Positions 1,169-38,877 of a stretch of 64,000 nucleotides of DNA are shown piece by piece. The DNA lies in assembly GCA_019873665.1 (NCBI GenBank), contig JAIOAV010000005.1, positions 1-64,000 on the forward strand, in the 5' to 3' direction. The translations under genes were made by a program, and so were the position numbers. Within the stretch, counting starts at the first letter, position 1. The number at the start of each line of letters is the position of its first letter. Source of the DNA: Chloroflexota bacterium. GTDB lineage: Bacteria > Chloroflexota > Anaerolineae > JAAYEA01. The notes under the pieces were generated by a model. The model had not been told where the DNA came from, ran no database searches, and saw only the letters and a list, made by a program, of their open reading frames with translations.

Positions 1169-3367
1169 CTAGTCAGACAGGTTGATGAAACCAAGCATTG
1201 TGCCGTTCAACAAGAACAGGCGTGGTGTCGCGCCATCCACAGCAATATCACGCAGGTCATCGAACGGCAGCTTGTCCGCCGCAGGGCGAAACTGCCGCGA
1301 GAAATGGCCCGCTTTGTCGAACTCGACGATGCGCTGGTTGCCCGCATCTGCCACATACACCGATCCCTTGCTCATGTCGTCTGGCCTGGAGATGGCAATG
1401 GCCACCGGATTGCTGAGCGGCTGGTCGAGTCCTTCCTGCGGGAAATCCACTTCTTTGCCCTGGAAAAGCTTGACGATTTCACCGTTCTTGAGCAGCACAT
1501 AGATGCTGCCATCGATCGCCAAATCCACGCCATCGCGCAATGTGATGGTTGGGTCAGTCAGCCTGTAATCCTCCGGTGCGTCAGTGTAGCTGCCATCCGC
1601 CGTAGCCTGGAACTTTTTGATGACGTTTTCCGCCGGGTCAAGGACGTATAAATAGAGATTCGGCGCGTCATAGTATGTCTCAACAGCCTGCGGCGCGCGG
1701 AGGGCTGCGCCATTCTCCAACGCCCTAGCCACAAGGCGGAGCGGCTGCCCGCCGCGCTCCAGGATGGTCCCGCCCTGCGCTAGAATCACCAGATTACCGT
1801 CCTCAGGGCGTAGGGCCATCCGCAGGCAGGTGATGTCCAAAGGTGTTCGCTTGTTGCCATCCACTACGGTCGAGGCGTCCAGCAATATCTCCGGGATCTC
1901 GCTCTTGAGGCTCTGACGCGTTTCATCCAACGTGTACTTGGCCACCCGGCCGATGCCCGTATCGAGCACATAGATCTCGCTCTGGCCCATCGCCAGACGG
2001 CTGGGGCGAATCGAGTCGGTGCCGGTGATGCGTGTCAGTTCGCCGACAAAGTTGACACGGGACACCTTGTTCACCTCATCCAGGCGCGCCGCAATCTGCT
2101 GCCGCAGCGCCGATGCTTCCTGGTGCTGTGGCGATTCGGTCAGCAACTGCACAAGCAGCGCGTCTGCCTGATACAAGGCGCTACGCTGTTCAGGCGGCGT
2201 GCCTGCCTGGGCCGCAGCCACGAGCTGCCCGGCGGTGGCCAGTTTGGCGGCGATCTGCGCCTGGCGTTCGCGCTCCAAGCGAGCACTGTTCCAAAAGTAG
2301 ACGATGGCGATCAACGCCGGGATGATGAGCGCGATCAGCCCGATCCGCAACGCAGTGGGTAAGGCACCCTGTCCCGGCGTGGCGCCCCCCTTCGCCGCAG
2401 TCTGGCGCTCTGGCAGCAGACCCTGCCCGATGGCACCAATCCGTTGCAGGAGGCTGCGGGCCGGTGCGGGCGCGGCGCCGGCCGCGCTGCGGCCGGCGGC
2501 ATACTCGGACGCGCGGGGGCGACGAGGGGCCGCAGGCCGATAAATCTCCGCCTCTGCTGCTTCTGCTCTCTCCGCTTGGGCAGTAGCGGCCTGCGCGGCA
2601 CGCGCCGATGCGCGCCCGCGCGTAGCGGCAGTCGCTGCCTGACGCACTCGCGTCGTTCCCGGCTCTATCTCGATGGCAATCGCCGCTAGAGTCGCGCCTT
2701 CGGCCAGCGCCTCCAGTGCGGAAATGGCGCTCTCGCTGTCCGTCTGCACGAGCGCGCCCACGATCTCGGCCTCGTCGGCCAGCCGCACCAGCGAGGTGGA
2801 AGCAAGGACGATGAGATCACTCTTGGCGACTTGGGCATGAAAGAGGTCCGGCTCGATCTCACGTCGCCAACCCACCGCTGTGGCCTGACGCGCATTTATG
2901 GCGTTGGGCGCGCGGCGGCTGAGCCAGGGGGAATCCGCCGGAAAGCGCCGCAACTCGTCGCCATGCGCCAGATAGACCAACGAAGGGCCTGCTTGCGCGA
3001 GAAAGAGGCTGTCGTTATGGAGAACAGCACAACTGATGCCGACAATGCCACGCTCCTCCACCTTGGCCTGTAGGTTCTCCTCGAACAGGGTGCGATTCGC
3101 CTCTTGGATCGCATACCGGAGGCGCGCCGTAATGCTGCCTCGACCCGGCCAGTACGCCTGTTCGATCAAGTCCGCCAGGCGGCGACAGACATCATCAGGA
3201 TCGGGGAAGGATCCCATCGGCTCAAGGAGGAGATAGAGCGCATCTCGGCCTTTGCCGAGCGACAAGAGGGCGCGCGGCTCGACGACACGCAGTTGATCGG
3301 TCCGTTCCTGCCACTCCCCATCCACTACACAGAGCTGTGCGACTGCCGTCTTGAAACGCGGGGCCAT
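1169..3367 (-). CDS. Membrane-anchored PP2C-family Ser/Thr phosphatase with C-terminal extracytoplasmic NHL-repeat beta-propeller
   Basis: N-terminal ~240 aa resemble a PP2C/SpoIIE domain (GIVGISCAVLH...LAQAGPSLVYL), followed by an Ala/Arg-rich linker, one TM helix (LRIGLIALIIPALIAIVYFW) and a C-terminal region with NHL-like repeats (VYVADAGNQRIVEFD). Confidence 0.6.
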   Translation of the reverse strand: MAPRFKTAVAQLCVVDGEWQERTDQLRVVEPRALLSLGKGRDALYLLLEPMGSFPDPDDVCRRLADLIEQAYWPGRGSITARLRYAIQEANRTLFEENLQAKVEERGIVGISCAVLHNDSLFLAQAGPSLVYLAHGDELRRFPADSPWLSRRAPNAINARQATAVGWRREIEPDLFHAQVAKSDLIVLASTSLVRLADEAEIVGALVQTDSESAISALEALAEGATLAAIAIEIEPGTTRVRQAATAATRGRASARAAQAATAQAERAEAAEAEIYRPAAPRRPRASEYAAGRSAAGAAPAPARSLLQRIGAIGQGLLPERQTAAKGGATPGQGALPTALRIGLIALIIPALIAIVYFWNSARLERERQAQIAAKLATAGQLVAAAQAGTPPEQRSALYQADALLVQLLTESPQHQEASALRQQIAARLDEVNKVSRVNFVGELTRITGTDSIRPSRLAMGQSEIYVLDTGIGRVAKYTLDETRQSLKSEIPEILLDASTVVDGNKRTPLDITCLRMALRPEDGNLVILAQGGTILERGGQPLRLVARALENGAALRAPQAVETYYDAPNLYLYVLDPAENVIKKFQATADGSYTDAPEDYRLTDPTITLRDGVDLAIDGSIYVLLKNGEIVKLFQGKEVDFPQEGLDQPLSNPVAIAISRPDDMSKGSVYVADAGNQRIVEFDKAGHFSRQFRPAADKLPFDDLRDIAVDGATPRLFLLNGTMLGFINLSD

Positions 3368-3414: not shown

Positions 3415-5004
3415 CTACTCCCACTCGATGGTGGCGGGGGGTTTACTGGTCACGTCATAAACGACACGATTGACGCCTGGCACCTCGTTGACGATGCGGT
3501 TGGCGATCTTGCCGAGCAGCTCATAGGGGAGGCGCGCCCAATCAGCGGTCATGGCGTCCTGGCTGGTAACCGCACGAATGGCCACCACATTGGCATAGGT
3601 GCGCCCGTCCCCCATCACGCCGACGCTGCGCAACGGCGTCAGGATGGCAAAGTACTGCCAGATATCGCGCCCCAGTCCGGCGGTCTCGACCTCGGTAGTT
3701 ACAATGGCATCCGCCAAGCGCAACGTCTCCAGCCGCTCTTGAGTCACCTCACCGATGATGCGGACAGCCAGGCCAGGGCCGGGAAAGGGTTGGCGTTGCA
3801 CGATCGCGTCTGGTAGCCCCAATTCAGCGCCCACCGCGCGCACCTCATCCTTGAAGAGGTCACGCAGTGGCTCTACCAGCGAGAACCTCATATCCGGCGG
3901 AAGCCCGCCGACATTATGATGCGTCTTGATATGCGCCGCGGTCTGAGACTTGCGTGGATCGGCGCTCTCGATCACATCCGGATAGAGCGTGCCCTGCACC
4001 AAAAAGTCCACCCGCCCCAATTGCCGGGCAGTCTCCTCGAAGATGCGGATGAAAGTCGCGCCGATGCGTTTGCGCTTTTCCTCCGGGTCGGTTACGCCCA
4101 CCAGCGAGTGCAAAAAGCGTTCGCGGGCGTTCACCAATATCACCTCAGCGTCCACATAGTCGCGGAAAAAGGACATGTTCCGCTCCGCCTCCCCCAGCCG
4201 GAGCAGGCCGTGGTCCACAAAGACGCAGGTCAACTGGGCGCCAATGGCGCGCGCCGTGAGCGCAGCAGCCACCGACGAATCCACACCGCCGGAAAGGGCG
4301 CAGATGGCTTTCCCATCGCCGACCTGGCGGCGAATCTGGGCAATGCTCTCTGCAATGAAAGAGCCGGCCGTCCAGTCGCCGCGACAGCCACAGATACGGT
4401 AGAGGAAATTGCGCAGGATCTGCATGCCCTGGGGCGTGTGGGCCACCTCGGGGTGGAATTGCAGCGCATAGATGCGGTGTTCCCGGTGAGCCATGGCAGC
4501 GACCGGGGAGTTGGCGCTGGAGGCCAGCACGACAAAGCCAGGGGGCAGCGTCTGGACATGGTCGCCGTGGCTCATCCAGACCGGCTGCGGGGCGTGCAAA
4601 CCGGCGAAAAGTGGGCTATCCCCGGCCATTTCGTCCAGGATGGCAGGCCCGTACTCGCGGCGCGGCGCGGGCTGCACCTGGCCGCCCAGTGTCTGGGCCA
4701 GCGCCTGCATCCCATAGCAAATGCCGAGGATGGGCACGCCCAAGCGGACGACGTATGCAGGCAGATGCGGCGCATCGGGGTCATACACGCTGGCCGGGCC
4801 GCCTGACAGGATGATGCCCACCGGCGCGAATGCCGCCAGCTCCGACTCGGCCACATCGTGCGGAAAGAGACGGCAATAGACATGGCACTCGCGCACCCGC
4901 CGCACGATCAACTGGGTGTATTGCGAGCCGAAATCCAGAACAGCGATCGCCTGGTGGTTTGCAGACATATTGTCAGATGTTTTCGGCGTGGGCTGGCCGC
5001 TCAT
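3415..5004 (-). CDS. guaA: GMP synthase (glutamine-hydrolysing)
   Basis: Class I glutamine amidotransferase N-terminus ([21 protein letters not shown]), ATP-pyrophosphatase SGGVDSSV motif, and the conserved C-terminal tail ending ...PATIEWE; the true start may be the internal Met at ~4968. Confidence 0.9.
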
Positions 5005-7257: not shown

Positions 7258-7310
7258 TCGAAAGCCTCCTCTGGACATAGCCGCAGGAGGCTTTGATCCT
7301 CGCACCCTGC

Positions 7311-8375
7311 CTATAGGATGCCTACTTTGCTGTGATCCCCCAGCACAAGTTTGATCGCCTTGGGCTTGATTGGCGAACGCTTGACCTCCACTGATCGGCC
7401 GATCAAGCTGTTCTCAATCCGCTGCGGGATGTCGATGATCTGGCAGTTCTCCAGGATGATGCTGTGCTCGACCTCGCTCGCCTCGATGGTAGTATGGTGA
7501 TAGATCGAGGTAAAGGGACCGATGTACGAGTTGACGATGCGGCTTTCGCGCCCGATTGCAGCGGGGCCGCGGATGACGCTATTGATGATCTCTGCACCCT
7601 CCTCGATCCATACCTTGCCGTTCACCTCGGAGGCGCTATCCACAAAACCGGCTATCTGAGGGGTCAACTCCTCTAGCAACAGACGATTCGCCTCCAGAAG
7701 ATCCTCCATCTTGCCGGTATCTATCCACCAACCCTCGTGGACGTACGGATAGACCTTGTAGCCCTTTTCCACAAGATACTGGATGGCGTCGGTGATCTCC
7801 AGCTCGTTCCGCCACGAGGGCTTGATGGCGTTGACAGCCTCAAAGATATGGTGATCGAACATATAGATGCCGACCAGCGCATAGTTGCTCTTGGGGACAC
7901 GCGGCTTTTCCTCCAGCCCCACGATGCGGCCGTCGCGAATCTCGGCGACGCCGAACGCGCGCGGATCCTCCACGTGCTTGAGCACGATCTGCGCATTCCA
8001 GGTGTTCTGCGAGAATTGTTTGACCAGTCTCTCGATGCCTCCCTGGATGACATTGTCGCCCAAGAACATGACGAAGGGCTCCTCTCGCAGGTAGTCCTGC
8101 GCGACCTTGACAGCGTGTGCCAGGCCAAGGGGAGCTTCCTGACGGACGTAGGTGATCTTGACTCCCCAGCGCGATCCATCACCCACAGCCGCCTGGATTT
8201 CGGGCGCTGTATCCCCGACTATGATGCCAACATCAGAGATGCCGGCATCACGCACTGCCTCGATCACGCGAAAGAGGACCGGTTTGTTCGCCACCGGCAC
8301 CAGCTGCTTGACGCTGGTATAAGTGATCGGGCGCAGCCGAGTGCCCTTCCCGCCGCTGAGAATCAATGCTTTCAT
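7311..8375 (-). CDS. Sugar-phosphate nucleotidyltransferase (long-form glucose-1-phosphate thymidylyltransferase-like, with C-terminal left-handed beta-helix)
   Basis: N-terminal MKALILSGGKGTRLRPITYTSVKQLVPVANKP matches the G-x-G-T-R-L NTP-transferase signature; ~355 aa indicates the long form with a C-terminal LbH domain. Confidence 0.8.
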   Translation of the reverse strand: MKALILSGGKGTRLRPITYTSVKQLVPVANKPVLFRVIEAVRDAGISDVGIIVGDTAPEIQAAVGDGSRWGVKITYVRQEAPLGLAHAVKVAQDYLREEPFVMFLGDNVIQGGIERLVKQFSQNTWNAQIVLKHVEDPRAFGVAEIRDGRIVGLEEKPRVPKSNYALVGIYMFDHHIFEAVNAIKPSWRNELEITDAIQYLVEKGYKVYPYVHEGWWIDTGKMEDLLEANRLLLEELTPQIAGFVDSASEVNGKVWIEEGAEIINSVIRGPAAIGRESRIVNSYIGPFTSIYHHTTIEASEVEHSIILENCQIIDIPQRIENSLIGRSVEVKRSPIKPKAIKLVLGDHSKVGIL

Positions 8376-31807: not shown

Positions 31808-32611
31808 GTGTTTCACGCCATCGTCTGCATCAAACAGGTGCCGGAAACAACCGAAGTTCAGATCAACCCCGAGACCAATACCCTGGTGCGCGAGGGGGTC
31901 AAGGGGATCATCAATCCCTTCGACACCTACGCCATCGAGGAGGCGATCCGCTGGAAGGAAAAGCTCGGCGGCAAGGTAACCGTCATCTCGATGGGGCCGC
32001 CGCAAGCGATGGACGCGCTGAAGGAGGCGGTGGCAATGGGGTGCGACGCGGCGGTGCTCTTGAGCGACCGGGCGTTTGCCGGCGCGGATACATGGGCTAC
32101 CGCCTACACGCTCTCTCAGGCGATCCGCAGGCTGGGCGATTTCGACCTCATCCTCTGCGGCAAGCAAGCCATTGACGGCGACACCGGTCAGGTCGGGCCG
32201 GGCATCGCGCGCCAACTGGGCATCCCACAGCTCACATACGTTTCCAAGATCCCGGAGCTGCACTTGAAGCAGCGCGCCATCCGCGTGGAGCGGTTGCTCG
32301 AGGAAGGACGCGAGATGGTAACCAGCACGCTGCCGGCGCTGGTGACGGTCGTGAAGGACATCAACCAGCCGCGCTACCCGACGGTGTTGGGCATCCGCCG
32401 CGCCACGCGCCTGACGATCCCCATCTGGACCGCCGCCGATCTGGAGGGGGCCGACCCGAGCAAGTTCGGCCTGCAAGGCTCGCCCACGCAGGTGATCCGC
32501 ATCTTCACGCCGCCGCCACGTGCCGCTGTCTGCGAGATGATCGCTGCCGAGTCGGCAGAAGAGGCTGCGGCCGCGCTGGTGGAGCGCCTGCTAGCGGAAA
32601 AGGTGTTCTAA
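31808..32611 (+). CDS. etfB: Electron transfer flavoprotein beta subunit
   Basis: (M)FHAIVCIKQVPET…VREGVKGIINPFDTYAIEEA… classic EtfB N-terminus; GTG start with RBS caggaggg; tataat -10 ~95 nt upstream. Confidence 0.85.
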   Translation: MFHAIVCIKQVPETTEVQINPETNTLVREGVKGIINPFDTYAIEEAIRWKEKLGGKVTVISMGPPQAMDALKEAVAMGCDAAVLLSDRAFAGADTWATAYTLSQAIRRLGDFDLILCGKQAIDGDTGQVGPGIARQLGIPQLTYVSKIPELHLKQRAIRVERLLEEGREMVTSTLPALVTVVKDINQPRYPTVLGIRRATRLTIPIWTAADLEGADPSKFGLQGSPTQVIRIFTPPPRAAVCEMIAAESAEEAAAALVERLLAEKVF

Positions 32612-32621
32612 GGAGGAGCGG

Positions 32622-33818
32622 ATGCCATTGCTGCAAGTTCTCGCCGACAAGTGCATTGGTTGCGGGGCATGTGTTGAGACATGCCACTTTGGCGCGCTGG
32701 CGATGGTCAACGACGTCGCCGTGGTGAACGAGGCATGCACTGCCTGCGGCGCGTGCCTGGAGGCATGTCCGGCGGAAGCGCTGGTCTTGGAGCGGCCCAC
32801 GGCCACACCTGGCGACAAGCTGGACAGCTATCGTGGCGTGTGGGTGTGGATCGAGCAGTTTGACGGGGAGGCAGGCAGCATCTCTTGGGAGATGATGGGG
32901 CAGGCGCGCCGGCTCGCCGATGAGCTGGGCAGTCCGGTTACCGCCTGCGTCCTGGGGAGCAACGTGCGCCATATCGCGCAGGAGGCGATCGCGTTTGGCG
33001 CGGATCGCGTCTTTCTCGCCGACGATCCGACGCTGGCCACCTACCGCACGGAACCGTACAATCGCGTGCTGGTATCGCTGGTGCGTGAGCACCGACCGGA
33101 GATACTCCTTCTGGGAGCAAGCGCCCGCGGGCGTGATCTGGCCGGCGCCATCGCCACCGAGATCAACACCGGCCTCACCGCCGATTGCACCGGCCTGGAA
33201 ATTGACCCGGAGACGCGGCTGCTGCGGCAGACCCGCCCCGCGTTTGGTGGCAACATTATGGCCACTATCCTCTGCCCCAACCACCGCCCGCAGATGGCAA
33301 CCGTGCGTCATCGCGTGTTCGAGATGCCGACACCCGACCCAACGCGCCAGGGACAGATCATAGACATCTCGGCAGCTCTGCGAGAGGAAGAGATCGCCAC
33401 CAAGGTGGTTGGTTTCATCCGCGAAGAGGGTGAGGTGAATGTGGCCGACGCCAAGATCATCGTCTCTGGTGGCAGGGGCGTGGGCGGACCGGAGGGCTTT
33501 GCGCCGCTGCGCGAGTTGGCCCAGGTCCTGGGGGGCGCGGTGGGCGCATCCCGCGCCGCCGTGGACGCGGGCTGGATCCCGTATCCGCACCAGGTGGGGC
33601 AGACGGGCCGCACCGTCCGCCCCGATGTGTACATCGCCTGCGGCATTTCGGGCGCGATCCAGCATCTGGCCGGGATGCAGACCTCCAAGATCATCGTCGC
33701 CATCAACCGTGACCCGGAGGCCCCGATCTTTGGCGTCGCCACATACGGCGTGGTGGGCGACGTGGCCAAGATCGTTCCCGAGCTGACCAAACAGATCAAG
33801 AGCAAACTGGGGCGCTAA
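32622..33818 (+). CDS. etfA: Electron transfer flavoprotein alpha subunit with N-terminal 2x[4Fe-4S] ferredoxin domain
   Basis: N-terminal [11 protein letters not shown]…[12 protein letters not shown], followed by a full EtfA (FAD-binding …[12 protein letters not shown]…). Confidence 0.85.
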
Positions 33819-36254: not shown

Positions 36255-36264
<10 letters not shown>

Positions 36265-37595
36265 GCCGCACCACGTATCTGGATGAAAAGCAGCTCCCCT
36301 TCTCTTTCTGCCCCGGCTGCGGTCATGCGCTGACCGTCAGAGCGCTCGATGCTGCGTTGGTCAAGCTGCAACTCGACCCGCACGAGGTCGTCATCGTTAC
36401 GGATATCGGTTGCGCCGGGTTGGCGGATCGTTTCTTTGCCACGAATGCGTTTCATGGCCTGCACGGGCGCGCCGTAACCTATGCCACCGGCATCAAGCTG
36501 GCCAACCCGTCGCTCAAGTTGATCGTCATCATGGGCGACGGTGGCTGCGGCATCGGCGGGCACCACGTGATCAGCGCCGCGCGGCGCAACATAGGCCTCA
36601 CCGTCATCGTCATGAACAACCTGAATTTTGGCATGACCGGCGGCGAGCATTCGGTAACGACGCCCACCAATGCCATCACAGCGACCACATGGCACGGTCA
36701 TCTGGAGCGCCCGCTGGATATCGCCACCACTGCGGCCAGCAACGGCGCCACCTATGTCGTCCGCACGACGGCGTTCGACAAAGCGCTGCCCGATCTGATA
36801 GCGGCGGCGATCGCGAACGAGGGTTTCGGCCTGCTGGACGTATGGGAGCTATGCACCGCTTACTTTCAGCCAAGCAACCGCTACGCGCGGCGCGAACTGG
36901 AGGCGGCAGTGGCAGCGATGCCCGGCGGCGCGGGCGTCTTGCATCAGGAGACACGGCCCGAATACAGCCGCGCCTATCGCGCAACCTGCGTCAGCGAGAG
37001 CAGACGCCCTGCCCTCGCGCCATTGCCGCTCGCGGCCAAGTATGATCACACCATCACCCGCCCGCTCAAAGGGGTGATCGCCGGCGCAGCAGGCGCCAAG
37101 ATCGTGTCCACTGCGACGGCCTATGCGCGCGGCGGCGTCCTGTCCGGGTTGTGGGCCACGCAGCGCAACGACTACCCGGTCACAGTGCGCACCGGCTATT
37201 CGGTGTCCGAGGTGATCCTAAGTCCGGAAGAGATTTTCTATCCGGGCATTGCCAGGCCGGATTTTGTCATCATCCTGTTCCCGGAGGGGCTAACGCCTAT
37301 GGTGCGGGCGCAGTTGGCACAGATGGGCGAGGCGGACACAGTGTATGCCGACCAGAGGCTGCTGCCACTGCCCACGCGGGCGCGCATCGTGCCGCTGGAT
37401 TTTGCCCGCGCCAGAATCAGGGCCTGCAAGGAGAACATGGCGATCATGGCCGTAAGCGAGCTGCTGCGCCATCAGGCCATCTACCCGCTGGATGCGCTGG
37501 TGGAGGCCATCCATCTGGGGCAACGCGCCGAATACGCCGCCGAGAATATCGCCGCCGTGCAGGCGTGCGAGGGGATCATGCTGTGCGACGGCTAG
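36255..37595 (+). CDS. korB: 2-oxoacid:ferredoxin oxidoreductase beta subunit (TPP-binding) fused to a gamma-subunit-like C-terminal domain
   Basis: TPP-binding GDGG motif and Cys ligands (FCPGCGH…DIGCAG…), then ~170-aa C-terminal domain resembling the Por/Kor gamma subunit (…RTGYSVSEVILSPEEIFYPGIARPDFVIIL…). Confidence 0.75.
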
Positions 37596-37614
37596 CTGCC
37601 CGGCTGAACCTGAT

Positions 37615-37783
37615 GTCATTGCGAGGAAGCGAAGCGACCAAAGCAATCTCCAACCGCAGTACAGGAGATTGTTTCGCAAATCGCGCTCACAATGACAGCG
37701 CCAGCGTCATTGCCTCGGGGGCGAAGCCCCCGAAGCAATCCCCTTCCAGCAGGAGATTGCTCCGCCGCTGCGCCCGCAATGAC
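37615..37783. repeat. Two tandem ~80-nt imperfect palindromic hairpin units (REP-like element) between kor and mocA genes
   Basis: Unit 1 (37615-37696) and unit 2 (37706-37783) both start gtcattgc and end (g/c)caatgac and contain an inner inverted repeat agcaatc(t/c)cc–N8-12–ggagattg. Confidence 0.65.
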
Positions 37784-37848
37784 GGACTGTGTTGGTCAAC
37801 ATCTGTTTGCTTTCTCCATAGGCATGAGGAATTGCGAAGGAGGAGGAG

Positions 37849-38877
37849 ATGAGACGAATCGGCATCATCGGGGCTGGGACAATGGGGAGGTGGCACGCGC
37901 AACGGTGGGCCGCCTTGATCAGACGCGGCGCGCCGGCGCAACTGGCCGGCTTTTTCGACATGGACGTAACGACGGCGGAGAGCGCCGCCGCCCAATACGG
38001 CGGTCGCGCCTTTGCCTCGCAGGATGCACTCTTTGCCGACGTTGACACGGTGATCGTTACTACACCGACTCCCACACACCGCGACGTAGTTGTGGCGGCG
38101 GCAGCACGGGGCAAGGACATCTTTTGCGAAAAGCCGATGGCGCGCCACCAGAAGGATTGTCGCGATATGATCGCCGCCTGCGCCGCGTCCGGCTCGCGCC
38201 TCTTTGTCGGGCAGGTGGTGCGCTTCTTTCCCGAGTTCGCCCGCGCACACGAGGTTCTGGCACGCGGCGATATCGGCCAGCCTGGTGTCATCCGCACGAC
38301 GCGGGGCGGCAGCCATCCCAAAACAGGCCGCAACTGGTATGCGAATTATGAACAGAGCGGCGGCGTGATCCTGGACCTGGCGATTCACGACCTGGACTAT
38401 GTGCGATGGTGCTGCGGCGATGTGGAGCGCGTCTATGCGCAGGGGTTGATGCATGCCGGCCTGCCACAGACCGATTACGCGCTTATCTCCCTCCGCTTCA
38501 AGAGCGGCGCAGTGGGCCATGTCGAGGCGAGCTGGGCGTATCCGCCGGGCAAATTCATTACGCGCCTAGAGATCGCCGGCGTGAGCGGTCTCATCGAGTT
38601 CAACAGCGAGCGGATGACGCCGCTGCAAGTGTGGGCGCAGGCCGAGGCACAGGGACAGGGTCCCAGCGTCACCATCCCGGAAAGCCCGCTGGCCGAGGAG
38701 GATGACCCGTACTACCGGGAGGACAAACACTTTCTGGATTGCCTGATCAGCGGCGAGCCGTTCATGATCCAGCCAGAAGATGGCATGGCGGCGGTAGAGG
38801 TCGCCCTGGCTGCCATCCACTCTTTGCGCACCGGCAAGCCTGTTCCGCTGGATTCCTTCGAGGAGGTGCTGCCATGA
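37849..38877 (+). CDS. Gfo/Idh/MocA-family NAD(P)-dependent oxidoreductase
   Basis: Rossmann motif IGIIGAGTMG, EKP motif (FCEKPMA), C-terminal alpha/beta domain. Confidence 0.8.
   Translation: MRRIGIIGAGTMGRWHAQRWAALIRRGAPAQLAGFFDMDVTTAESAAAQYGGRAFASQDALFADVDTVIVTTPTPTHRDVVVAAAARGKDIFCEKPMARHQKDCRDMIAACAASGSRLFVGQVVRFFPEFARAHEVLARGDIGQPGVIRTTRGGSHPKTGRNWYANYEQSGGVILDLAIHDLDYVRWCCGDVERVYAQGLMHAGLPQTDYALISLRFKSGAVGHVEASWAYPPGKFITRLEIAGVSGLIEFNSERMTPLQVWAQAEAQGQGPSVTIPESPLAEEDDPYYREDKHFLDCLISGEPFMIQPEDGMAAVEVALAAIHSLRTGKPVPLDSFEEVLP

Follow-up and report, generated by a model that had tools for sequence, protein, structure and literature searches.

What are two long palindromes, set side by side, doing between a stop codon and the next ribosome-binding site (RBS) of a bacterial operon? 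The question is raised by a 64,000-nucleotide (nt) stretch of an Anaerolineae (Chloroflexota) genome (contig JAIOAV010000005.1, positions 1 to 64,000; hereafter the window), in which the 253-nt gap (37596-37848) that separates korB from a gene of the Gfo/Idh/MocA family (hereafter mocA) holds a tandem pair of palindromic units, unit 1 and unit 2 (Table 1). The initial annotation labeled the pair as similar to repetitive extragenic palindromes (REPs) and bacterial interspersed mosaic elements (BIMEs), a label that is right, for many extragenic palindromes interspersed in genomes form one large family with the units. Our analysis leads us to regard the pair, with a probability of roughly 0.7, as a nested-palindromic DNA repeat, mobile but non-autonomous and present in two copies, that resembles BIMEs and REP doublets forming hairpins (REPINs). 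The pair is ordinary mobile DNA at the korB-mocA junction, and its reading as a dedicated regulator is unsupported.

Both units lie in the same orientation and share two stems, an outer one made of YGTCATTGCGAG and CTCGCAATGACR and an inner one made of GAAGCAATCYCC and GGRGATTGCTTC. As had been described from the sequence, they start with GTCATTGC, end with CAATGAC and enclose an inner inverted repeat (AGCAATCYCC...GGAGATTG), which reads AAGCAATCTCC (37641-37651) and GGAGATTGTTT (37664-37674) in unit 1, and AAGCAATCCCC (37733-37743) and GGAGATTGCTC (37752-37762) in unit 2. The full terminus GCAATGAC is found at the end of unit 2, whereas unit 1 ends in CACAATGAC instead; altogether unit 1 shows 3 deviations from the family box consensus, and its tag is TGTC where that of unit 2 is CGTC. 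The palindromic arrangement is not due to chance, because shuffling the window gives an expected count of 0.00 for the pattern GTCATTGC-N50-80-GCAATGAC. A search of the 64-kb window that allowed 3 mismatches per box returned no further copies, the extra matches staying within the 3-11 of shuffled sequence.

The stable structure anticipated for the pair is borne out by RNA folding, in which each unit is far more stable than shuffled sequence (z -5.5 to -6.4). The + strand yields -36.8 kcal/mol for unit 1 (z -6.4) and -43.5 kcal/mol for unit 2 (z -6.1), the - strand -38.8 and -50.7 kcal/mol, respectively (z -5.5 each), and 0 of 200 shuffles reached the stability of the units; folds with DNA parameters give z -3.6 (unit 1) and -6.3 (unit 2). 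The single extended hairpin that had been proposed for each is the predicted shape of unit 1 on both strands and of unit 2 on the - strand, but not of the + strand of unit 2, which is predicted to fold into a four-way junction.

A scan of one genome per species with the strict 24-base pattern GTCATTGC-N12-32-AGCAATCNCC-N4-24-GGNGATTG, for which about 1 chance match is expected by rough estimate, found at least 120 loci in species-representative genomes. All family statistics given here (hosts, units, boxes, monomers and gene contexts) are among the matches listed. Judged by record titles, 87 loci belong to Chloroflexota, mostly Anaerolineae, 11 to Alpha- and other Pseudomonadota, 8 to Deltaproteobacteria/Thermodesulfobacteriota, 4 to Bacteroidota, 2 to Planctomycetota and 1 each to Ignavibacteriota, Calditrichota, KSB1, Nitrospirota and Bacillota, with 3 unclassified; at least 9 phylum-level groups besides Chloroflexota carry units. 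Mis-binning cannot explain this cross-phylum spread, because the carriers include megabase contigs and isolates such as Mucilaginibacter sp. OK268 and Methylosinus trichosporium OB3b, whose plasmid holds an unannotated unit between convergent genes. Phages or plasmids as the vehicle were considered and rejected, given that units were found on no more than 5 viral contigs and in 5 plasmid records.

The 118 full units, from 106 sources, are 73-133 nt long (median 87.5 nt) and obey a common plan, YGTCATTGCGAG - module - (C)GAAGCAATCYCC - loop of 8-39 nt - GGRGATTGCTTC(G) - module - CTCGCAATGACR. The four boxes are near-invariant, the outer ones also at positions that the search pattern does not fix (GTCATTGCGAG and CTCGCAATGAC are each exact in 98/118), and the sequence between the boxes is hypervariable, with 116 distinct sequences among 118 loops and 191 among 236 modules. 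The base before GTC is C in 26 and T in 45 of the 71 oriented units, which makes the tag YGTC in every one of them; the closing bases are always Y at -1 and always R at +1 (T-A 38, C-G 17, C-A 9, T-G 7), so that 55 of the 71 close with a T-A or C-G pair. After GCAAT most units have CYCC, which pairs with GGRG of the other half, and the Methylosinus copy has CCAG. Half units (tag - ATTGC - module - GCAAT - tail) are found singly as well, or arrayed head to tail; since 252 of the 287 monomers sit in 126 tail-to-tail dimers and only 35 are orphans, the unit is an inverted dimer and has the layout of a REPIN. Within the monomer the module measures 6-68 nt (median 14 nt) and is enclosed by a 5-bp ATTGC/GCAAT stem; modules fold on themselves at -4 kcal/mol or below in 39% of cases as against 17% in shuffles (median z -1.2), and the predicted shapes of whole units comprise 58 rods, 26 three-way junctions and 34 four-way or more complex structures. 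Several 8-kb loci in other genomes contain 2-4 copies each.

The unit family is mosaic. One unit, in locus L132, has modules expanded to ~210 and ~100 nt, and 17 of 116 units fall below the 5th percentile of mismatched-flank controls as nested in a larger palindrome made by their flanks (~10-15%). A second palindromic repeat, ...CGCAAAAAGTC (unit) GACTTTTTGCG..., encloses units in L002 (~320-470), L032 (~2230-2380), L120 (~2110-2260) and L061 (~4450-4600), the hosts being Deltaproteobacteria, a Ktedonobacterales metagenome-assembled genome (MAG) and an unclassified MAG; this nesting suggests insertion into, or co-mobilization with, a second repeat family. In L004 (2912-2977), L112 (7325-7420) and L116 (~1560-1600) the usual content, either of a side module or of the stretch enclosed by the outer boxes, is replaced by an inner module that recurs, GGTCGAGTAGC...GTATCGAGACC.

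Mobility is evident from filled and empty sites in both directions. The contig JGI Ga0268387_1016267 (L121) has the same gene order as the window, with ~89% nt identity (84-90% over 13 kb) and 92% amino-acid identity in KorB; its korB-mocA spacer is a mere 38 nt, TAA ccgtcaaagcacgagcacatgcgaaggaggaggaggag ATG, and holds no unit. Conversely, its etfB-etfA junction carries 164 extra nt with one unit (L121 2179-2345) at a site that is empty in the window. The pair thus represents a recent mobile insertion, because the whole insert is absent from this close relative. The L121 insert begins directly past the stop codon (TAG) and ends in ...TTCTCCATAA before the native GGAGGAGCGG. By alignment and manual comparison, the two inserts are homologous, arms included, and opposite in orientation: the right arm of the window insert, which reads GGAGAAAGCAAACAGATGTTGACCAAC on the - strand, shares homology with the left arm (GGGAAAGCAAATAGAAGTTGAACAAC) of the L121 insert, an independent one, and so does the window left arm, as reverse complement, with the unit-proximal ~22 nt of the L121 right arm, the distal 29 nt of which are missing in the window. 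The window right arm ends in TCTCCA and is followed by TA (37819-37820), and TTCTCCATA at the insert end is lineage-specific. Moreover, when read on the - strand, the left half of unit 2 and the right half of unit 1 are each similar to their counterpart in the one unit of L121, from which it follows that the pair originated inside a single composite, through duplication, recombination or a second insertion. In arm-based scans of the fetched loci, no arm turned up outside the window and L121, and the metagenome scan gave 0 matches, indicating that the metagenome collection is without this lineage.

A further difference between the two inserts concerns the side hairpin of unit 2 (37715-37733; - strand, GGGGGCTTCGCCCCC), which is separated from the homologous L121 module (2270-2284; GGTCGCTTCGCTCCC) by 3 substitutions that perfect the hairpin; either quasi-palindrome (template-switch) correction or selection for pairing is expected to leave such a pattern.

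A second lineage tells the same story. In the acyl-CoA carboxylase operons of Anaerolineales, a unit occupies the spacer between AccC and BCCP in L008 and L129, for which L130 and L131 (OW818655.1) have just 16 nt of plain spacer, and the spacer between DUF1579 and epimerase genes holds a unit in L130 (1920-2012, a normal unit), L131 and L132 (1053-1397, with the expanded modules) and a GTAG-type palindrome (GTAGGGACACAGCGAG...CTCGCTGTGTCCTTAC) in L129 (1375-1455). The latter spacer is a hot spot for insertions, and additional DNA is accepted by the modules. Three genomes have units at different junctions of one and the same operon.

The family prefers extragenic positions just past a stop codon. 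According to naive gene calls, the neighboring genes are co-directional for 44 units, convergent for 17 (a count that includes the window unit, scored so only through a spurious minus-strand open reading frame, ORF) and divergent for 4; the upstream stop codon lies at a median distance of 10.5 nt and within 12 nt in 23 of 44 cases, with the next RBS following shortly after. Most units that appear to lie within ORFs turn out to be start-codon extensions. A real in-frame unit is that of L028 (2008-2081), within the AICARFT domain of PurH (ORF 1393-3018), where it adds the 25-residue VIASGAKQSPRLTQEIASQTTLAMT in a loop and aligns as an insertion relative to the M. tuberculosis PurH (3zzm). This in-frame insertion resembles the Rickettsia palindromic elements (RPEs).

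In its architecture, the unit consists of two ~35-50-nt monomers, YGTCATTGCGAG-(variable hairpin)-CGAAGCAATCYCC, joined as an inverted dimer, with its YGTC tags pointing outward and a short variable spacer at its center. In single-stranded DNA (ssDNA) or RNA the four boxes would pair across the halves into two 11-12-bp stems and the variable modules would form side hairpins, thereby giving rise to a rod or a four-way junction. In the window lineage the unit travels in a ~165-225-nt composite with short arms, which entered the operon directly 3' of the korB stop codon and before the mocA RBS and now contains two units; the insertion is tolerated because of its position between the stop codon and the next RBS. 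As for how the repeat moves, we tentatively favor transposition in trans via folded ssDNA, by an HUH/Y1 enzyme (similar to IS200 or to REP-associated tyrosine transposases, RAYTs) or by another enzyme, a proposal to which we would give somewhat less than even odds and which fits the fixed YGTC tag, the dimeric hairpin form and the flanks of bare units, in which no consistent target-site duplication was found. Nor is there, among the 71 oriented units, any conserved flank or target motif beyond the Y/R at the unit ends.

A motif scan of 1,749 small ORFs in the ~850 kb around the 118 units found one HUH-Y1 gene, and among the 287 monomers no pair brackets a gene. The gene in question, L035 1040-1753 (-) in a deltaproteobacterial MAG, is RAYT-like, lies 3.3 kb from the unit and is placed between 30-nt palindromes of the GTAG type (1071-1109 and 1674-1712; GCACGGTCCCGCAG.CTGCGGGACTGTGC), with which it forms a classical REPtron unrelated to the units. 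A Y1_Tnp gene (PF01797) is also present on the Anaerolineales contig of L132 (7342-7539), preceded by the hairpin GAGTGCGGACT-tt-AGTCCGCACTC (7290-7320); this gene extends past the locus edge and only its upstream flank is visible. A RAYT or IS200 partner was rejected on the grounds that the sole HUH-Y1 gene of the ORF scan is flanked by a different, GTAG-type palindrome and that none is present in the window or its relatives.

Several observations weigh against the mobile, REPIN-like interpretation or against the enzyme proposed for it. No transposase is linked to the family: neither the window nor its relatives contain an HUH/Y1 ORF, both Y1 genes of the fetched loci (L035, L132) adjoin palindromes other than the units, and all-vs-all clustering of 812 neighboring ORFs revealed no protein family or transposase that recurs beside units. 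The window has the repeat at a single locus in 64 kb. The boxes are nearly identical over ~10 phylum-level groups, unlike those of lineage-specific REPINs, and L008 and L129 differ, at the same site, in 1/46 box positions as compared with 8/38 in the modules and ~8/11 in the loop. This low divergence of the boxes hints at selection on resident copies, unless the two are independent insertions; independent insertion at this site has to be reckoned with as a hot-spot effect, because one spacer has clearly been struck more than once. Finally, the composite of the window lineage is flanked by TA...TA, and L058 and L106 have 13-15-nt flanking direct repeats together with arms similar to terminal inverted repeats (TIRs), features that would fit a DDE enzyme.

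The latter features invite the interpretation that the unit is a MITE (miniature inverted-repeat transposable element) of a conventional DDE transposon, whose outer stem would be a TIR read as double-stranded DNA and whose palindromic interior would be incidental. In keeping with it, units of the T type have ends that read TG...CA, both inserts of the window lineage are flanked by TA, and the units of L106 and L058 lie amid ~27-bp TIR-like arms and direct repeats. Yet the flanks of bare units are complementary rather than duplicated, an element that consists of TIRs alone would need neither the conserved inner boxes nor the paired side modules, and the ~850 kb of flanking DNA contains no autonomous partner with such ends; in addition, the arms vary by lineage while the unit remains constant, so the unit may ride in, or have entered, other MITEs. 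We therefore consider a DDE origin of the unit itself improbable, although a DDE route may apply to the composites, namely those with TA flanks here and those with direct repeats and TIR-like arms in L058 and L106. The elements in L106 (~130-330) and L058 (~1500-1700) are MITE-like and larger than the unit inside them, with terminal inverted repeats TGTRATGGGTAA.A..AT.TTGAACAC and direct repeats GTTTTATCTATTT and CTTTTAGAGCAATTC; the TTGAACA motif of their arms recurs in the arms of the window insert.

A different possibility is that the host has selected the pair as a cis-acting RNA element that protects the 3' end of korAB, brings about partial termination or processing, or sets the korB:mocA ratio, and some E. 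coli REPs do act on transcripts in such ways. This explanation gains from the high stability of both units as RNA, from their position inside an operon and directly past a stop codon, as is the rule in the family, and from the conservation of the boxes between L008 and L129. It gains as well from the right-arm end cuuucucc, for which both minimum free energy (MFE) and centroid folds predict pairing with the Shine-Dalgarno sequence of mocA (ggaggagg; window 37810-37848), a feature with a predicted counterpart at etfA in the L121 insert (2325-2352; CUUCUCC-AUAA-GGAGGAG); such pairing could lower the translation of the gene that follows, or the arm sequence may match by coincidence. On the other hand, L121 keeps the operon with a 38-nt spacer and no units, one copy of the family lies in frame inside a coding gene, and structure alone would lead to covariation in the stems, which are instead invariant in sequence across phyla. 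The two strands, furthermore, are equivalent: in operon contexts the sense RNA, with an MFE of -45.6 kcal/mol, is as stable as the antisense RNA, with -45.8 kcal/mol (Wilcoxon p=0.94; 21 vs 23 units), the outer stem shows 9 G.U as against 6 A.C, and the 17:11 ratio of orientations relative to transcription is not a significant bias. A function of the sense-strand RNA was rejected on account of this symmetry. Neither strand of the gap 37596-37848 contains a hairpin-plus-U-tract terminator site, the sequence downstream of the units being agcgcc (unit 1) and ggactg (unit 2) rather than a U-tract, and no sigma-70-like promoter was found in it. The role in terminating or stabilizing transcripts that the initial annotation attributed to the pair is accordingly without support, and we deem a host-selected RNA element unlikely. 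Under the mobile-repeat interpretation, the strong hairpins on the operon mRNA would act only incidentally, and effects as a 3'-exonuclease barrier, as a site for RNase processing or, through pairing of CUUUCUCC with the mocA Shine-Dalgarno sequence, as a brake on mocA translation are a plausible by-product.

Readings of the units as attC-like sites, riboswitches or ribozymes were rejected on the basis of sequence, absence from the relative and Rfam. The window scan with Rfam 15 gave no match, a permissive local scan gave only chance-level matches of the miRNA type (E>0.7), and in 5 loci with canonical units no Rfam match fell on the units. An FMN riboswitch (RF00050, 94.5 bits) lies in L006 (2117-2281), ~130 nt upstream of the unit and unrelated to it.

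The units could also be thought of as sites at which the host binds or structures its DNA, as cruciforms or four-way junctions recognized by gyrase, IHF-like, nucleoid or recombination proteins, a role that has been proposed for BIMEs. The palindrome is symmetric on both strands, its four invariant boxes contain GCAAT/ATTGC and are conserved across phyla, and perfect four-way junctions are predicted for the DNA; but presence and absence vary between close relatives, the window has a single locus in 64 kb and we know of no binding protein, all of which makes this the remotest of the explanations. A bolder and doubtful extension of the mobile-repeat interpretation, to which we would nonetheless grant some chance, is that the units constitute an undescribed class of cross-phylum, REPIN-like replicators that adopt a four-way junction in ssDNA, offer two 'cargo' positions (for hairpins or inserts of ~100-200 nt), depend on an enzyme other than a classical RAYT and keep their boxes under purifying selection. 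If true, this would imply a role at the level of the host or a conserved binding protein.

The genes on either side are as first annotated, with TPP_enzyme_C and POR domains upstream of the units and a Gfo/Idh/MocA protein downstream (Table 1). The korB stop codon is the TAG at 37593-37595, and a POR_N/PFOR_II gene and an acyl-CoA dehydrogenase gene lie upstream of korB, all on the + strand. The closest KorB homologue, P0001, is 92% identical, and those at 57-64% identity are labeled Anaerolineales or Chloroflexia in their sources, from which a Chloroflexota origin of the window is most likely; the gene order around mocA is the same in L121, L122 and L123. The overall GC content of the window is 62%. 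The ORFs at 37151-37852 (+) and 37687-38520 (-), already suspected to be spurious, have no Pfam match, overlap real genes and are artefacts of GC-rich sequence.

Table 1. Features of the korB-mocA junction and of the empty etfB-etfA site in the window
Feature	Position	Strand	Description
Empty etfB-etfA site	32609-32623	+	TAA-GGAGGAGCGG-ATG; stop-RBS-start in 10 nt
'korB', 2-oxoacid:ferredoxin oxidoreductase beta/gamma fusion	36255-37595	+	Pfam TPP_enzyme_C 2.2e-26, POR 1.6e-06
Left arm of insert	37596-37613	.	ctgcccggctgaacctga, 18 nt; absent from L121 empty site
Unit 1	37614-37697	.	Closing pair T/A; core GTCATTGC at 37615 to CAATGAC at 37696
Unit 1, plan			tGTCATTGCGAG - module - cAAAGCAATCTCC - 12-nt loop - GGAGATTGTTTCg - module - CTCACAATGACa; rod-like hairpin
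Inter-unit spacer	37698-37704		7 nt, gcgccag
Unit 2	37705-37784	.	Closing pair C/G; core GTCATTGC at 37706 to GCAATGAC at 37783
Unit 2, plan			cGTCATTGC - P2 hairpin - AGCAATCCCC - 8-nt loop - GGAGATTGCT - module - GCAATGACg
Unit 2, P2 hairpin	37715-37733		tcgggggc gaa gcccccga
Right arm of insert	37785-37820	-	37791-37817 read on - = GGAGAAAGCAAACAGATGTTGACCAAC
Native RBS (aggaggagga) and ATG (37849) of downstream gene	37839-37851	+	Common to L121 empty site
Gfo/Idh/MocA-family oxidoreductase	37849-38877	+	Pfam GFO_IDH_MocA 1.1e-25, GFO_IDH_MocA_C3 1.7e-26

Among the systems described thus far, the closest to our units is the superfamily of REPs tagged with CGTC or TGTC, which includes dRS3 of Neisseria and RPE-4 and RPE-6 of Rickettsia (Di Nocera, De Gregorio & Rocco 2013, PMC3733652). 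In the descriptive text of that source, the tag is CGTC, 'changed to TGTC in many repeats', A-T pairs open the stem, which is followed by a short unpaired tail of consensus CCA, the monomer has an 8-9-bp stem and a 4-5-nt loop, and the repeats are mostly inverted dimers, extragenic with some intragenic in-frame copies, spread over several phyla (five host phyla are listed) and devoid of a dedicated transposase. Against this description, the units here are alike in having YGTC in 71/71 cases, a stem that begins with AT (ATTGC...), 126 inverted dimers, an extragenic location with an in-frame copy in PurH, hosts in several phyla and no linked transposase found; the unit of the Methylosinus plasmid, ...GCAATCCAG, has what looks like a CCA-type tail. 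They differ from it in that the monomer stem is only 5 bp (ATTGC/GCAAT), the 11-12-bp stems forming between the halves, in that two hypervariable hairpin modules are carried by each unit, and in that the main host, Chloroflexota, is outside the five phyla listed in that text. The unit consensus, CGTCATTGCGAG..., was compared with CGTC-1 to -4 by text description only and may be identical with one of them.

With REPINs and the REP-RAYT system (Bertels & Rainey; Nunvar et al. 2010, PMC2817692) the units share two inverted REP-like halves around a short variable spacer that form one long hairpin, as well as being non-autonomous, extragenic and polymorphic between related genomes. However, their tag is YGTC and not GTAG, no flanking RAYT is seen in the ~850 kb around the 118 units, the RAYT-like genes of the fetched loci flank other palindromes, which are of the GTAG type, and REPIN populations are confined to lineages whereas the boxes here hardly change over ~10 phylum-level groups. 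E. coli BIMEs are likewise tandem or clustered palindromes with variable linkers, located in operons or between convergent genes and in some cases nested, but their sequence is another and the units here have no defined Y/Z REP types or linker motifs. Correia/NEMIS, ERIC and RPE MITEs have in common with the units a length of 80-130 nt, terminal inverted repeats, co-transcription and, as in RPE, in-frame insertion, the difference being that bare units have no consistent target-site duplication. To our knowledge, the units have no parent insertion sequence. Integron attC sites differ by their R''/R' core sites (RYYYAAC...GTTRRRY), which are absent from the units (ends YGTCATTGC...GCAATGACR), and by moving with a cassette gene, whereas the unit inserts alone into conserved operons. 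Literature searches in which the boxes, as DNA and as RNA, and their characteristic translated peptides were looked for found these only in primers or nowhere and returned no description of the family, keyword searches led to general papers on REPs, REPINs and CGTC repeats alone, and a protein-database search with a tandem-unit ORF gave only 1 match. The family is apparently an undescribed, distinctive variant of the REP/REPIN kind.

These findings bear on annotation in the first place, for the 253-nt gap is an insertion and not a regulatory region to annotate, and both overlapping ORFs are to be discarded. They also extend well beyond this locus: the repeat creates spurious small ORFs (VIAS..KQSP.., HCEERSDEAIS and ..LAMT peptides), and even in-frame protein insertions, in many metagenome-assembled genomes. 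Above all, four boxes of 11-13 nt have remained nearly unchanged in Chloroflexota, Proteobacteria, Bacteroidota, Planctomycetota and other phyla, and it is the sequence between the boxes that changes. Hence, the family offers a tractable case in which to ask what mobilizes palindromes of the 'CGTC type', and whether they persist as selfish DNA or by virtue of a function for their hosts.

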